A stretch of 64,000 nucleotides of DNA from an uncultured Chitinophagaceae bacterium (lineage in GTDB: Bacteria > Bacteroidota > Bacteroidia > Chitinophagales > Chitinophagaceae). The position numbers were made by a program, and so were the translations under genes. This document shows, piece by piece, positions 5,037-8,899 of the stretch; the stretch's first letter is position 1, and each line of letters starts with the position of its first letter. The notes beneath the pieces were generated by a model. It worked only from the letters and a program-made list of their open reading frames with translations, ran no database searches and had not been told where the DNA came from. The stretch is from positions 15,395 through 79,394 of the forward strand of contig CAYRJM010000001.1 of the NCBI GenBank assembly GCA_964424665.1, in the 5' to 3' direction.

Positions 5037-7016
5037 CTATTCTTTAGTGACAATCATAATTCCGTTCATAGATAAATAGTGTCCCGGATAAGTACACAGG
5101 TAGGGATACTTCCCGGGTTTTTCTGGTGCTGTAAAATATATACTTTGCGCATGCCCGGGTTGTAAAAGACAGGTAGCTTGCAGCACTTCTTCTATATCCG
5201 GTACATACCCCTGATCCGGACCTGCCAACCCCATGTTTAACGCCGACTTGCCGATCTTATCTAACTGCCCGACCTGTCCGATAACCAGATTATGGAGCAT
5301 ATCATCCGTATTATTAAAAACAAGCTCTATATGGCTACCCGCCTTTACCTCAATTTTAGCTTTACTGAACCGAAGTCCGGGCTTGGTACCAATTGCGATC
5401 ACTTTATCCGGTCCGTTTTTCCATTCCGGCGGCAGCACCGTAACCGTCTTTAATTCATCCGCCGCGCAGACATCCGCTTTTGTATCCGTACCGGCGGATA
5501 GTTGATGATGGCCATTCCCACGGTGTTGAACATACCCTTCAGGAATATTATTTAAAGTGTAATAAGCAAACGTGTGAAGCAACCTTACACCGGAGTTTGA
5601 TTGAAGGTCATGAATTTTAACTTCATGAATATATCCAGCCCTTAGCCCGTCCACATATAACTTTACCGTTTTCCCGTCTTGCGACACCTCAACGTTTGTG
5701 ACCGGGCATTCTTGCTTATTAATGATAGGGCTGCCATAGCCACTATGATAGATATAGGTAAACCCGGTCACCGCATAAGAAGAAATCTTGCCTGCCATTT
5801 CTCTATTTACCGGCAGTGTAAATGCTATTTCAAAACCATAAGGTGTGGCGTGAATCGTCTTCATTTCAAAAGGCACTTTTCCCGTCCAGGTTAATCGTTG
5901 CAAGCCATAGGGTTTACCGCCCATTGAAGGCCAGCCTCTGCTGGTCATGCCAATATAAAGATCAGAGTTTTTTCCCCAGGCCAGCCTGAGAATACCTGAG
6001 GAAAAGCCCTTGCGAAAAGGGAAACAAGCCCCCTGGTATTCCCCTTTCACCTTTTCAAGTGCCACACGCATAATTTTACTCTGCCCCTGATCACCGATAA
6101 GCAACTGATCCTTAAAAGGGCCAAAGTCCGCCGGTGCGATATTCAAAACAGCAGAGGTGGAAATCCCCATAATACCTTGTGGAAACCACACGGAGGGGAG
6201 TTTGAGCGACGGATGCTCTTTATTAAATGCATACATTGTCCCTACCGAATCAGCGAACATATTGCGGTTTAGGCCATGTACGGTTGAAGAGGGATCGTGA
6301 CTCCATCTCAGTCCCATAGGATGTCCTGTAAAGTCTCCTTTTTCTATATGGGTAAGCCAACCGGATCCTATCCAATCGCCCTGGTTCTCCGTATAGAATA
6401 AATCGCCCTGCGCATTTAAGCCAAATCCCGCAGGAGAGCGCATGCCTGTCGCAACAGGAACCATTTTTCCTTCCGGCGAAATTTTCAGCATCCAGCCTCT
6501 CCACCTGGCCAGGCTTTCCATATGGCCGTGCGTCCATCCTAAGTTTAATGTGACGATCATGTCATCGTTAGGTAAGATCAATGGACCGTAGGAGTATTCA
6601 TGATAATTGCCGGACAACGGCCAGGCATATACTGTTTGGAAAAAATCGGCTTTCCCATCCTGGTCAGTATCGGTAATTTTTGTGAGCTCGCCACGCTGAG
6701 CAGTATAATAGGCCCCCTCATAAAAGGCCAGCCCTAAGGGCTCATGCAACCCGGAGGCAAATAACGTGTATTCAGGGTGCTTACTGCCAGGATGATCTAT
6801 CAACCAGATCTTCCCGTGGCGTGTAGCAACGGCCAACTGCCCATTTGCATTAAAAGCCATCCCTCCTACTTCTAATTTGACGGCATCCGGAACAGCAACG
6901 GTAGTTATCTTATAATAATCAGATTCTTCAGGCTGGTCGACGCCCTGACCATCTCCCGGGTAAAAAGCGCCCAGTAAAGCTAAAGTCAGGAACAACAGTC
7001 TGAATATCTTTTCCAT
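5037..7016 (-). CDS. Secreted glucose/sorbosone-dehydrogenase-like beta-propeller protein with a C-terminal azurin-type (type 1 copper) cupredoxin domain
   Basis: The track ORF is 5037..7022 with a TTG start. An ATG two codons in (7016) gives [17 protein letters not shown]. Propeller motifs are [10 protein letters not shown] and [25 protein letters not shown]. The C-terminus has MLHNLV ... [10 protein letters not shown], the azurin His/Cys/His/Met ligand pattern (compare azurin CTFPGHSALM). Confidence 0.75.
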   Translation of the reverse strand: [659 protein letters not shown]

Positions 7017-7027
7017 TTTCAACCAAT

Positions 7028-8899
7028 TTACCAGATAATATTATACTTGATACGCGCCACATTCCCCTGAGGTTTTAACGCAGCTACCAGTCTATAACCA
7101 TTTTCAACTTTAACGACTTCCGGTCTGGCCCCCGCGAGGTCCGTCAGATAATAATTATAATTATCTACAGCATAACTGCTATCCGGCAGTTTATCAATAA
7201 GGGCTCCTTCTGCAAGCAATACACATAAGTTTTCAGTCGCATTGTTAAAGGTTAAAGTAAGTTCTCTTTGCAAGCCTTTGCTGTTATCAACAGGATGAAT
7301 GTAATCGTTTACAGTGATATTTTTGTAGGTATAGGCAAACAGTGGCATCCCTTTGTCCGTCAGTCTATAGCTTCTGTTACGAAACACACCGGAATCAGCG
7401 GGAATATTTCGAGGCCATTCGTCTCCTTTATGCTGCATCATTTGAACTGTTGGTTTTCCTCCCAACACTGTAATTCCACCTAACGGAAGCGCCAACTGTT
7501 CTTCTCCCCTTGATCTCCACATGTCAGCAGCATCGATAAATCCCCCTCGCCAGACGCTAATAATATTATAATTATTCAGATTATATGCATAGTTTATCCC
7601 CCCGGGCAATCCAACGGCAATGACATGCGTGAGCTTCTCACCATCATGCATCATAAAACCGCGTTGAGTAACTGCTTTATCGGCCACCTCGACAATATAG
7701 GGTGCAGGAGCGGGCTTGGGAAATGCGGAAGAAGGCGTGCTAAGCAGGGTCTCCGGAATATGGGTCGCTTGATAACTCAATTTAAATTGTTGATATCTGT
7801 TATTATATACTAAAGCGAACAAATGATTCCCCTGATCTAAATGAACTTTCTCATAATGTGGTGTAAAATAATCTCCCGAGGTATCATTATCTACAACAAG
7901 CTGTGAATCTATCCACAACCAGGAAGGGCCACCGGCCTGAAGTTTAAAAATATATTCACCGTCAGCAGGGATGCTCATTGTTCCCTTATATACGCCTTGC
8001 TCATATTTATTGTAAGACAACTGAGATAGACTATCGGGTCGAAATATCCTAACTGGCTTAATCCGTTGTAATGTATCTAAGTTCGTATATAGGCTTTTAT
8101 ATACTTTAAGCGTCATGTCTTTTAAAGCGATTCTTTGAGGAATATACGTCCTGTACTTAATGTTCTTATACGCAACAGGACCGTGACTTCCTTGTATCTC
8201 CAGTGGACCCAAAGGCTGTTCATCTGAAAAATAGGATCCTAACGTGGGCAGGCTTGCTTCCACATTCTTTTGCACAAGGGCTCCATTTAAATACACATAT
8301 ACAAATTTGGCATTACTGATTTTCTTCCCTGAAGCATCAAAGCGGGGAGCCTGGAATCGAACTTTTAAATGTTGCCATAGTCCGGGGGCCTTACAGGCGT
8401 TAATCGCCGGAGCCTGCCCCTCGAAGCCCTGCCCATGAGCCATTCGTTCATAAATTCCGCCACAGTCTCCATATTGAAGGCTATCGTTTGGTTTCAGCCA
8501 ACTATCAAAGATTTGCACCTCATATCTTCCCATAAAATAAATACCTGAGTTAGAACCTTTAGGCATCATAAAATCCAACTCAAGATCAATATCTCCGTGC
8601 TTGAATTTCGTAAGAAGTTCTGCACGATCAGTATCGGTAGGCTTGCTCACTAAAATACCCGTACCTGGGCTTGTCTGCAGGCTATGAACAATGTTGCGGT
8701 TGGCATATACGGTTCCCGCGACCGACCAATTGTCATGATGATCAGAGCTGTATCTGAAATCAGAAATACTTTTCAAACTCAAATGCTCAAACGGTATGGC
8801 CGGCACCTTAGGTTCCTGGGTCTTATTTTTATCCTCCTGGTTCTTACAGGAAGTAAAAACAAGAAATAAAAGCAATAAAAAACCTAAATGTTTTCTCAT
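7028..8899 (-). CDS. Lipoprotein with an N-terminal DUF1080 (3-keto-disaccharide hydrolase family) domain, a central PA14 domain and an uncharacterised C-terminal half
   Basis: 623 aa. The lipobox is LVFTSC followed by KNQEDK. DUF1080 motifs are GSNSGIYFMGRYEVQIFDSW and LEIQGSHGPVAYKNIKYR. A PA14-like block reads GEYIFKLQAGGPSWLWIDSQLVVDND...VHLDQGNHLFALVYNN. Confidence 0.7.
   Translation of the reverse strand: MRKHLGFLLLLFLVFTSCKNQEDKNKTQEPKVPAIPFEHLSLKSISDFRYSSDHHDNWSVAGTVYANRNIVHSLQTSPGTGILVSKPTDTDRAELLTKFKHGDIDLELDFMMPKGSNSGIYFMGRYEVQIFDSWLKPNDSLQYGDCGGIYERMAHGQGFEGQAPAINACKAPGLWQHLKVRFQAPRFDASGKKISNAKFVYVYLNGALVQKNVEASLPTLGSYFSDEQPLGPLEIQGSHGPVAYKNIKYRTYIPQRIALKDMTLKVYKSLYTNLDTLQRIKPVRIFRPDSLSQLSYNKYEQGVYKGTMSIPADGEYIFKLQAGGPSWLWIDSQLVVDNDTSGDYFTPHYEKVHLDQGNHLFALVYNNRYQQFKLSYQATHIPETLLSTPSSAFPKPAPAPYIVEVADKAVTQRGFMMHDGEKLTHVIAVGLPGGINYAYNLNNYNIISVWRGGFIDAADMWRSRGEEQLALPLGGITVLGGKPTVQMMQHKGDEWPRNIPADSGVFRNRSYRLTDKGMPLFAYTYKNITVNDYIHPVDNSKGLQRELTLTFNNATENLCVLLAEGALIDKLPDSSYAVDNYNYYLTDLAGARPEVVKVENGYRLVAALKPQGNVARIKYNIIW

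Follow-up and report, generated by a model that had tools for sequence, protein, structure and literature searches.

DUF1080 lyase/hydratases of the BT2157 type work together with a Gfo/Idh/MocA oxidoreductase and a TIM-barrel lyase (bioRxiv 10.1101/2024.03.25.586180), and DUF1080 proteins also adjoin periplasmic LacABC-type lactose/glycoside 3-dehydrogenases in Caulobacter and Bacteroidota, where they are required for lactose use (PMC9007349). A 2026 preprint describes some 22,000 bacterial six-bladed pyrroloquinoline quinone (PQQ) proteins, many of which lie in carbohydrate-active enzyme (CAZyme) clusters and have adjacent or fused cytochromes; in its main text the word ‘azurin’ occurs zero times and ‘copper’ once (bioRxiv 10.64898/2026.07.10.737718). 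A verrucomicrobial DUF7133-HEAT-cytochrome c protein has been reported to release glucose from lactose, as followed by a glucose oxidase/peroxidase assay (PMC5342196). Here we describe a gene pair that lies in a 64,000-nucleotide (nt) stretch of DNA from an uncultured Chitinophagaceae bacterium (contig CAYRJM010000001.1; hereafter the window, to which all positions refer). Its first gene, P2 (7028–8899, minus strand), encodes a 623-residue lipoprotein with DUF1080, PA14 and C-terminal supersandwich domains. Its second, P1 (5037–7016, minus strand), encodes a secreted protein in which a β-propeller, an immunoglobulin (Ig)-like domain and a cupredoxin follow one another. Both assignments combine the open reading frame (ORF) list and Pfam, together with neighbour loci for P2 and a structural model for P1. 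We tentatively read the pair as a bipartite sugar-oxidising module of aerobic Bacteroidota and their relatives, recruited here into an operon for rhamnogalacturonan II (RG-II)-like degradation.

Like the BT2156–2160 (AL1–5) pathway, the pair contains a DUF1080 protein, a lipoprotein as AL2 is, encoded beside a predicted redox enzyme. It differs in having neither a Gfo/Idh/MocA gene nor a TIM-barrel lyase, and its propeller–cupredoxin protein would export electrons rather than recycle a bound nicotinamide cofactor (NAD). The DUF1080 domain is, moreover, fused to PA14 and supersandwich domains, and its site is lost in a quarter of orthologs. The LacABC enzymes (flavin adenine dinucleotide (FAD) and cytochrome c subunits; Caulobacter CCNA_01705, Pedobacter) share the logic of the pair, namely a periplasmic dehydrogenase, a one-electron carrier and a DUF1080 neighbour. 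The folds are unrelated, however, LacABC having a GMC/FAD fold and a haem carrier whereas P1 has a propeller like that of soluble glucose dehydrogenase (sGDH) and a copper carrier, and the pairing of P2 with P1, as two translationally coupled genes, is far tighter than that of LacABC with DUF1080. By analogy, we regard LacABC as a precedent for a non-Gfo, respiration-linked redox partner of DUF1080. An earlier note on this DNA, made from the sequence alone, had proposed a new kind of redox front end; this was overstated, since the FAD/cytochrome c LacABC already pairs with DUF1080 (PMC9007349).

On the P1 side, the PQQ sugar dehydrogenases (YliI/Asd, Thermus thermophilus 2ISM, Pyrobaculum aerophilum 3A9G, Streptomyces coelicolor 3DAS, Acinetobacter calcoaceticus sGDH and AA12) have the six-bladed fold in common with P1. 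Their blade-3 ‘GN(x)H’ histidine and their blade-4 and blade-6 arginines are recognisable in P1 by motif, and they have the same secreted, cofactor-dependent design, the cofactor of P1 being a predicted one. AA12 also has an electron-transfer domain of its own, a cytochrome b where P1 has a copper cupredoxin. Unlike these enzymes, to which it shows no significant sequence similarity, P1 has a type-1 copper exit where they use a cytochrome or a free acceptor; it also has an additional Ig-like domain and an obligatory DUF1080 lipoprotein partner. The PVC-type CxxCH haem proteins (DUF7133/TIGR02604, HEAT, cytochrome c; including Lac161_ORF7) contain in DUF7133 the sequence family nearest to the P1 propeller, and they likewise join a propeller to a C-terminal electron-transfer domain. 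In Pfam and NCBIfam scans, however, neither HEAT repeats nor a CxxCH haem domain turned up in P1, which carries a cupredoxin instead. The ligand set and ligand spacing of that cupredoxin are those of auracyanins and azurins, which are free or lipid-anchored carriers, whereas in P1 the domain forms the C-terminus of a 660-residue enzyme.

Literature searches (DUF7133, DUF5703, cupredoxin with PQQ or DUF1080) returned no characterisation of the P1–P2 pair, and public records label P1 only as ‘plastocyanin/azurin family copper-binding protein’ and P2 as ‘family 16 glycoside hydrolase’ or ‘DUF1080 domain-containing protein’. The pair is not a categorically new system. It varies themes that are already known, and is very widespread: a PQQ-type dehydrogenase to which a carrier is fused on the one hand, and DUF1080 with a redox partner on the other. 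If it oxidises sugars and passes the electrons through copper, it would represent a new wiring variant, with copper in place of haem or NAD, and would bear both on bacterial six-bladed PQQ enzymes in carbohydrate loci and on oxidative, non-hydrolytic cleavage via 3-keto intermediates.

Conservation of the P2–P1 pair

P2 is the first gene of the pair and P1 the second. Two start codons are available for P1, TTG at 7022 (661 residues, the numbering used here) and ATG at 7016 (659 residues, the start of the public gene call), which lie 5 and 11 nt, respectively, from the TAA stop of P2. Database searches returned more than 7,400 homologs of P1 at E ≤ 1e-10, the best 120 of which share its length and architecture, and about 1,900 homologs of P2, many of them on contigs equal in length to those of the P1 matches and several from the same named species.

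A scan of one genome per species found at least 594 stretches that encode a P1 relative, and the best 80 loci were retrieved. These belong to the Cytophagales (Dyadobacter, Cyclobacterium, Pontibacter, Catalinimonas, Algoriphagus, Emticicia), Chitinophagales, Saprospiraceae (Saprospirales), Flavobacteriaceae (Arenibacter, Maribacter), Rhodothermales together with Salinibacter, and Balneolales. All 80 fall in environmental orders such as Cytophagales and Rhodothermales, which we take to be aerobic.

By a strict tblastn test, 72 loci have a P2 homolog directly upstream of P1 on the same strand. Five further loci have one directly upstream together with extra matches elsewhere, giving about 77 of 79 informative loci (three loci end at a contig edge and are not informative for pairing). 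The exceptions are L020, with no P2 homolog, and L061, with a fragment of the P2 tail 7 kilobases (kb) upstream. Co-occurrence beyond this genome, on which the earlier note had staked its proposal beforehand, thus extends over several orders. In most loci the ORF-based gap between P2 and P1 falls between −7 and +30 nt, a spacing that points to translational coupling. The two genes, in the order P2–P1, make up a self-contained and widely conserved unit with coupled translation.

The flanking ORFs of 82 loci were clustered and 122 upstream neighbours were surveyed with Pfam, downstream neighbours entering the clustering only; neither analysis brought out a third conserved partner (Gfo/Idh/MocA, TIM-barrel lyase, cytochrome or lactonase).

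Structure of P1

P1 begins with a signal peptide and ends in a type-1 copper cupredoxin (residues ~536–661; 5040–5417, minus strand), recognised by Pfam Copper-bind (PF00127; 38.5 bits against a cutoff of 21.2), by Foldseek and by its invariant ligands. The ligands are H577 (5292–5294), C643 (5094–5096), H648 (5079–5081) and M652 (5067–5069), each checked at the codon; the last three have the spacing C-x4-H-x3-M, and all four are invariant across 21 homologs with 53–67% identity. The solved structures nearest to the domain by sequence are the auracyanins 6kol, 2aan and 1ov8, with values from 5e-21 (6kol) to 9e-16 in a profile search of the PDB, and azurins score lower. In the AlphaFold2 (AF2) model the domain matches 6kol with a template modelling (TM) score of 0.87 (Foldseek). 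The NCBIfam azurin equivalog TIGR02695 is not reached (31.6 bits against a cutoff of 105.1). Judged by sequence, the domain is best described as auracyanin-type and not as an azurin in the strict sense; the complete copper ligand set reported in the earlier note stands.

Residues ~35–385 (5868–6920, minus strand) form a six-bladed β-propeller, with six four-stranded blades in the AF2 model (pLDDT, the predicted local distance difference test score, 84.3; predicted TM score (pTM) 0.80). The Foldseek search of P1 against the PDB is led by 2ism, 3a9g and 3das (E 9e-16 to 6e-13; target-normalised TM 0.71–0.75), followed by sGDH (1cq1, 1c9u) and then by fungal AA12 (6jt5, 6h7t). A by-eye comparison with YliI pairs SGNYH141EYSYGPL of P1 with TGNH147FGGRL...GKGYLFIALGE, the YliI stretch that holds the catalytic histidine. 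It further pairs GMR195SPAGFGLN with GIR214NPQGMAMN, and ILR346LAWG with RIR343DVRTG. The P1 residues so matched, H141 (6600–6602), R195 (with S196 at 6435–6440) and R346 (5985–5987), are all invariant in the homolog alignment of the P1 family.

Profile scores on the propeller are low or borderline. Pfam GSDH (PF07995) gives 12.5 bits against a threshold of 25, this sub-threshold match falling in register on blade 5, and TIGR02604 gives 15.8 bits against a cutoff of 122. DUF7133, with a cutoff of 27, scores 25.7 bits on the whole protein and 27.1 on the propeller alone, over profile positions 75–209 of 385, which correspond to blades 2–3 only. Taken together, the model and the motifs give P1 the fold of the PQQ sugar dehydrogenases and part of their active-site signature, with PQQ as a putative cofactor. 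The fusion of a one-electron copper centre to the propeller argues strongly that the propeller is a redox catalyst. Nitrous oxide reductase, in which a propeller and a cupredoxin are also combined, was considered as an identity for P1 and rejected (Foldseek root-mean-square deviation ~24 Å, TM 0.26–0.29), the likeness being an architectural analogy only.

Between the propeller and the cupredoxin lies an Ig-like β-sandwich (residues ~386–496; 5535–5867, minus strand), delimited from the secondary structure and pLDDT of the AF2 model, to which a Pfam scan assigned no family. The linker that follows (residues 497–518) has a pLDDT below 50. Within residues 497–535 (5418–5534) this low-confidence linker is succeeded by a conserved ‘C-G-x-D-P-x-K...P-x-x-W’ motif, in which K525, P531 and W534 are invariant and C519 is nearly so. 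Because C618 of the cupredoxin is nearly invariant as well, the two cysteines raise the possibility of a disulfide or a docking element.

Structure of P2 and its DUF1080 site

P2 opens with a signal peptide and lipobox, MRKHLGFLLLLFLVFTSC (8846–8899, minus strand), whose lipidation residue Cys18 was checked at its codon (8846–8848); the lipoprotein signal reads LVFTSC, and at least 90% of 29 homologs have a cysteine in the Cys18 column. The DUF1080 domain (residues 70–248; 8156–8692, minus strand) scores 85.7 bits against 26.8 for Pfam 3keto-disac_hyd (PF06439), and its top PDB match with a family profile is 4qhz at 3e-20. It is followed by a PA14 domain (PF07691; residues ~262–385; 7745–8116, minus strand; 36.8 bits against 24), for which the PA14 structure 6qdi is matched at 3e-6. 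The domain calls of the earlier note are therefore borne out for both proteins, from the propeller fold (by Foldseek) and the cupredoxin of P1 to the lipobox, DUF1080 and PA14 of P2, and a Pfam scan likewise leaves the 230-residue tail of P2 without a family, as that note had said.

The tail (residues 395–623; 7031–7717, minus strand) is modelled with high confidence (AF2, pLDDT 90.4, 18 strands) as a probable β-supersandwich. Its Foldseek matches are weak (TM 0.4–0.47) and fall on β-supersandwich (galactose-mutarotase-like) domains of glycoside hydrolase (GH) families GH38, GH65, GH94 and GH95, of the polysaccharide lyase family PL33 and of YidC. The tail was also considered as an aldose 1-epimerase, a function that would go well with an anomer-specific dehydrogenase, and this role was set aside, as the top 50 Foldseek matches include no mutarotase and are non-catalytic glycosidase supersandwich domains with TM below 0.5. 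An exhaustive HMMER search returned 1,577 cluster representatives at E ≤ 1e-3, so that the tail defines a domain family of about 1,600 cluster representatives with no Pfam entry. In the best 150 matches it stands at or near the C-terminus of proteins of about 620 residues (DUF1080-PA14-tail) or about 475 residues (without PA14), or of fragments. None of these 150 fuses the tail to a propeller or a cupredoxin, and there is thus no Rosetta-stone evidence linking it to P1.

To describe the DUF1080 site we scored six motif residues, N117, E127, Q129, Y150, Q236 and H239, in the 72 P2 orthologs encoded upstream of P1 homologs. They read NEQYQH in 55 of the 72, which share just 30–50% overall identity. 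The P2 of the window belongs to this intact group; it keeps the NSG, YEvQ, GgIY and QxxH motifs and with them all six family residues, in agreement with the DUF1080 signatures first noticed in it. All 72 orthologs retain the tail and the DUF1080 scaffold, and PA14 is absent from 11 of them, through two events.

Genomic context

The pair belongs to a run of closely spaced genes, all on the minus strand and transcribed in the order GH95 (8914–11790), P2 (7028–8899), P1 (5037–7016/7022), a DUF5703 protein (2703–5033), an iron-dependent alcohol dehydrogenase (Fe-ADH; 1535–2686) and a protein of the dihydrodipicolinate synthase (DHDPS) family (609–1532). The successive intergenic gaps are 14, 5–11, 3, 16 and 2 nt. 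The pair had been described as wedged between GH95-type genes with gaps of 3–14 nt; the gaps and the upstream GH95 gene are as described, whereas the gene 3 nt downstream of P1 encodes a DUF5703 protein (PDB 9hyq, 934 bits), which has no significant sequence similarity to the GH95 protein. A scan of positions 1–18000 for sigma-70 promoters and terminators gave counts at chance level, such a scan being uninformative for Bacteroidota.

Among the genes downstream of P1, the Fe-ADH is closest to ErcA/lactaldehyde reductase models and the DHDPS-family protein is a predicted aldolase. Past the left edge of the window, on the same contig (L001:7968–11815), the operon continues with genes for a dehydrogenase of the PdxA family, an acid-sugar kinase of the DUF1537 family, an SSF symporter and an IclR regulator; against the D-threonate-4-phosphate dehydrogenase model the first of these scores 332 bits, which falls short of the cutoff. 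By their family assignments, these genes look like an acid-sugar or deoxy-sugar catabolic set and would fit an upstream sugar-oxidation step. The operon of the pair contains neither a TIM-barrel lyase nor a Gfo/Idh/MocA gene; the absence of the latter, pointed out in the earlier note, extends to all ORFs of at least 200 residues in the window.

The window as a whole (1–64000) is one very large glycan-degradation locus that resembles an RG-II or a fucose/rhamnose-glycan system. It encodes members of GH78 (three), GH106, GH2 (two), GH127, GH95 and GH29, together with a GH140-like apiosidase, BNR/sialidase-like proteins, two DUF3826 proteins, a DUF6298 protein, a GDSL esterase, an AraC regulator and an SSF transporter. 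In ten other loci the pair lies within 10 kb of homologs, 53–67% identical, of genes from this glycosidase cluster (GH29, GH95, GH63-like, GH127, DUF5703 and a 913-residue protein). Five of the ten are from Dyadobacter and two from Chitinophaga; the others come from a Chitinophagaceae, an Adhaeribacter and a Cyclobacteriaceae member.

Clustering in 81 loci gave sulfatase (13 loci), SusC and LacI (8 each), then GH29, a 916-residue protein and a short-chain dehydrogenase/reductase (7 each), and then FG-GAP/ASPIC and a cupredoxin-DUF7133-HEAT protein (6 each) as the commonest families; GH95 occurs near the pair in only 4 loci. The Pfam census of the 122 upstream neighbours counted 12 sulfatases, 3 Gfo/Idh/MocA proteins and 2 of GH95. 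The pair is not generally a component of glycosidase operons, and the pectic, glycosidase-operon specificity attributed to it does not survive a comparison in which GH95 is rare, sulfatase is the commonest neighbour and no third gene is conserved.

The sulfatases next to the pair (loci L003–L082) are of the Sulfatase + SGSH_C type; their rank as the commonest neighbour hints at a link between the pair and sulfated glycans in some lineages. The cupredoxin-DUF7133-HEAT proteins place a second copper-wired propeller near the pair in six loci. In an example of 960 residues (L065:12573–15452, minus strand), a cupredoxin forms the N-terminus of a protein that also has a full DUF7133 propeller (216 bits) and HEAT repeats, and this domain content suggests what is in effect a PVC-type protein with copper replacing the CxxCH haem.

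Proposed function

On the reading that we favour, P1 would be exported to the periplasm, where its propeller, with the fold of the PQQ sugar dehydrogenases, would take two electrons from a sugar hydroxyl. The electrons would exit singly, via the auracyanin-type blue-copper domain, to the aerobic respiratory chain; with such a fused exit, P1 would need no NAD(P) and no separate cytochrome. P2 would be its membrane-tethered partner, held in fixed proportion to P1 through translational coupling. Its PA14 and supersandwich domains may bind glycan, dock P1 or do both, and an intact DUF1080 domain, as in the window, would process the oxidised sugar by the β-elimination and hydration known for BT2157. 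In favour of this reading stand the gene pairing, the invariant copper ligands, the propeller fold with its YliI-like motifs and weak in-register GSDH match, the DUF1080 residues kept in 55 orthologs, the environmental orders of the retrieved loci, the LacABC precedent and the glucose release from lactose reported for a DUF7133-HEAT-cytochrome c protein. The idea that a dehydrogenase feeds the DUF1080 protein, put forward in the earlier note, is in this respect plausible and is supported by the co-occurrence of the two genes; the pectic link that came with it is unsupported.

A more far-reaching version, which we consider unlikely, would have P1 oxidise a ring hydroxyl of a glycoside and send the electrons via blue copper to a terminal oxidase, with the docked DUF1080 lipoprotein eliminating the aglycone. 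This would amount to a widespread, respiration-coupled, non-Koshland mode of cleavage in aerobic Bacteroidota, Rhodothermota and Balneolota. If so, glycan breakdown would yield respiratory energy in the periplasm, before uptake, and the 230-residue supersandwich tail would constitute a new docking or binding domain family.

Several results weigh against the reading of the pair as a sugar-oxidising module with a catalytic DUF1080 partner. Sequence searches of the PDB with P1 as a single sequence, with a 21-sequence profile (swamped by azurins) and with a propeller-only profile (E ≤ 10) gave no propeller match, and hhalign of the propeller profile against E. coli YliI gave a probability of 0.6%, which is not significant. 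Because the propeller thus matches no solved propeller by sequence, PQQ binding by P1 stays an inference. In the manual motif comparison, the YliI calcium ligand Glu240 (in DEIN) has no clear counterpart in P1, and the Arg-Asn pair of YliI is Arg-Ser; we take the calcium ligands of YliI to be Glu240 and Tyr250, which fits the computed numbering. Enzymes with the PQQ sGDH fold, furthermore, typically oxidise C1 of free aldoses, which yields no substrate for DUF1080, and that P1 might oxidise C3 is wholly inferred.

The DUF1080 site itself provides the second group of objections. In 17 of the 72 orthologs (Dyadobacter, Chitinophaga, Adhaeribacter, Emticicia, Imperialibacter, three Saprospiraceae and others) essentially all six motif residues are changed, and yet P1 and the tail of P2 remain conserved, which means that DUF1080 catalysis cannot be the role conserved in P2. 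At least 7 changes are needed to account for the loss on a neighbour-joining P1 tree. In favour of the reading, on the other hand, the all-or-none way in which the six residues are kept or lost among divergent orthologs indicates a real, selected functional site, one that has repeatedly become dispensable. Nine of the ten loci that share the glycosidase genes of the window have a degenerate DUF1080, compared with 8 of 61 other loci (Fisher p = 3e-6), the ten not being phylogenetically independent (five are Dyadobacter); the site-intact exceptions in this context are the window and L004. DUF1080 catalysis is thus dispensable in the very context that the earlier note had invoked. The 55 intact and 17 site-lost orthologs form a natural experiment, by which the role of DUF1080 is directly testable by comparison.

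The correspondence with the characterised enzyme is also limited. For BT2157, Nasseri et al. list Glu103, Asn134, Glu164, Gln166, Tyr190, Lys245, Gln273 and His275 as conserved channel residues. The alignment with 8v31 spans only 40 residues, so the mapping of E127/Q129, Y150 and Q236/H239 of P2 to Glu164/Gln166, Tyr190 and Gln273/His275 is based on motifs alone.

Alternatively, P1 would be a periplasmic aldose dehydrogenase acting on C1 of the reducing end, like YliI/Asd, sGDH and AA12, a reading that we judge somewhat improbable and that survives best among the alternatives considered. Monosaccharides or oligosaccharides set free by the neighbouring glycosidases would be oxidised to aldonolactones, with electrons passing via copper to respiration; the aldonates would be imported and catabolised, and P2 would be mainly a non-catalytic, glycan-binding anchor in which the DUF1080 site is optional. 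C1 oxidation is the usual chemistry of the folds closest to P1. The AA12 enzyme CcPDH prefers L-fucose, and fucosidases recur beside the pair, GH29 in 7 loci and GH95 in 4. The downstream Fe-ADH, DHDPS-family aldolase, PdxA-family, DUF1537 kinase and SSF symporter genes suit oxidised sugars and lend this explanation local support, so that it fits the local genes about as well as the reading we favour. The dispensability of the DUF1080 site in 17 of 72 orthologs, 9 of the 10 glycosidase-sharing loci among them, is in line with it, and reducing-end oxidation has been proposed for six-bladed PQQ enzymes of CAZyme clusters (bioRxiv 10.64898/2026.07.10.737718). It leaves unexplained, however, why a DUF1080-fold lipoprotein should be an essentially obligatory partner, and why six residues should be perfectly kept in 55 divergent orthologs, that of the window included. 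Neither a lactonase nor an aldonate dehydratase could be recognised among the genes of the operon, and the acid-sugar genes are locus-specific and not conserved with the pair.

The sugar-oxidising module that we favour is a general one, whereas the earlier note had envisaged that, within this glycosidase operon, the pair is dedicated to cleaving one recalcitrant pectic (RG-II) linkage by an oxidative, non-hydrolytic route. The pair is indeed embedded, with gaps of 3–14 nt, among GH95, GH140-like apiosidase, BNR and DUF5703 genes, in an operon that lies inside a 64-kb locus rich in GH78, GH106, GH127 and GH2, and the ten other loci described above place it beside homologs of the same glycosidases (53–67% identity). 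About 70 of 80 loci, however, are without these glycosidases and have neighbours that include sulfatases, FG-GAP/ASPIC proteins, regulators and transporters, and the DUF1080 motif is lost in nine of the ten loci that do share them (five of which, being Dyadobacter, are kin); we consider such a dedicated function very unlikely.

Equally improbable is a module that is not sugar-catabolic, in which P1 acts on a non-carbohydrate or donates electrons to another enzyme and P2 is a lectin-like targeting subunit with a DUF1080 that only binds: the neighbourhood is highly variable, the cofactor site of P1 is a putative one, no PDB propeller being matched by sequence, DUF1080 is a concanavalin/GH16-like jelly-roll of a kind typical of binding modules whose site degenerates repeatedly, and cupredoxin-DUF7133-HEAT proteins stand near the pair in 6 loci, but all three P2 domains are of carbohydrate-associated types, the folds closest to P1 are all sugar dehydrogenases, and carbohydrate genes (sulfatases, SusC, GH29, GH95) are the commonest recurring neighbours.

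Other genes of the locus

The DUF5703 protein encoded next to P1 (2703–5033, minus strand) matches two solved, apparently unpublished PDB entries, 9hyq (934 bits) and 9hmb (311 bits), both titled only ‘DUF5703 domain-containing protein’; a literature search found no mention of DUF5703. In Chitinophaga L018 a homolog of it with 58% identity is encoded near the pair.

The window contains a single xylose-isomerase-like TIM-barrel gene (AP_endonuc_2; 52068–53015, minus strand), 43 kb from the pair, between DUF3826 and SSF/DHDPS genes. The AP_endonuc_2 TIM-barrel family supplies the 3-keto-β-glucoside lyase of the Bacteroides pathway. In Chitinophaga L018, a 58% identical homolog of the window gene is found about 7 kb upstream of P2 and about 9 kb from P1.

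In an 817-residue protein (13346–15799, minus strand) an FGE-sulfatase (formylglycine-generating-enzyme-like) domain is joined to a sialidase-like propeller of the BNR_2 type, and the gene shares 35 nt at its 3′ end with the start of the apiosidase-like gene. Domain scans assigned no family to the proteins encoded at 19068–20255 (plus strand, 395 residues) and 20375–23116 (plus strand, 829 residues), and a 913-residue protein (38532–41021, minus strand) has a weak GH20b-type N-terminal domain only. The 395- and 913-residue proteins recur with GH29 beside the pair in Dyadobacter and Chitinophagaceae loci, at 52–67% identity.

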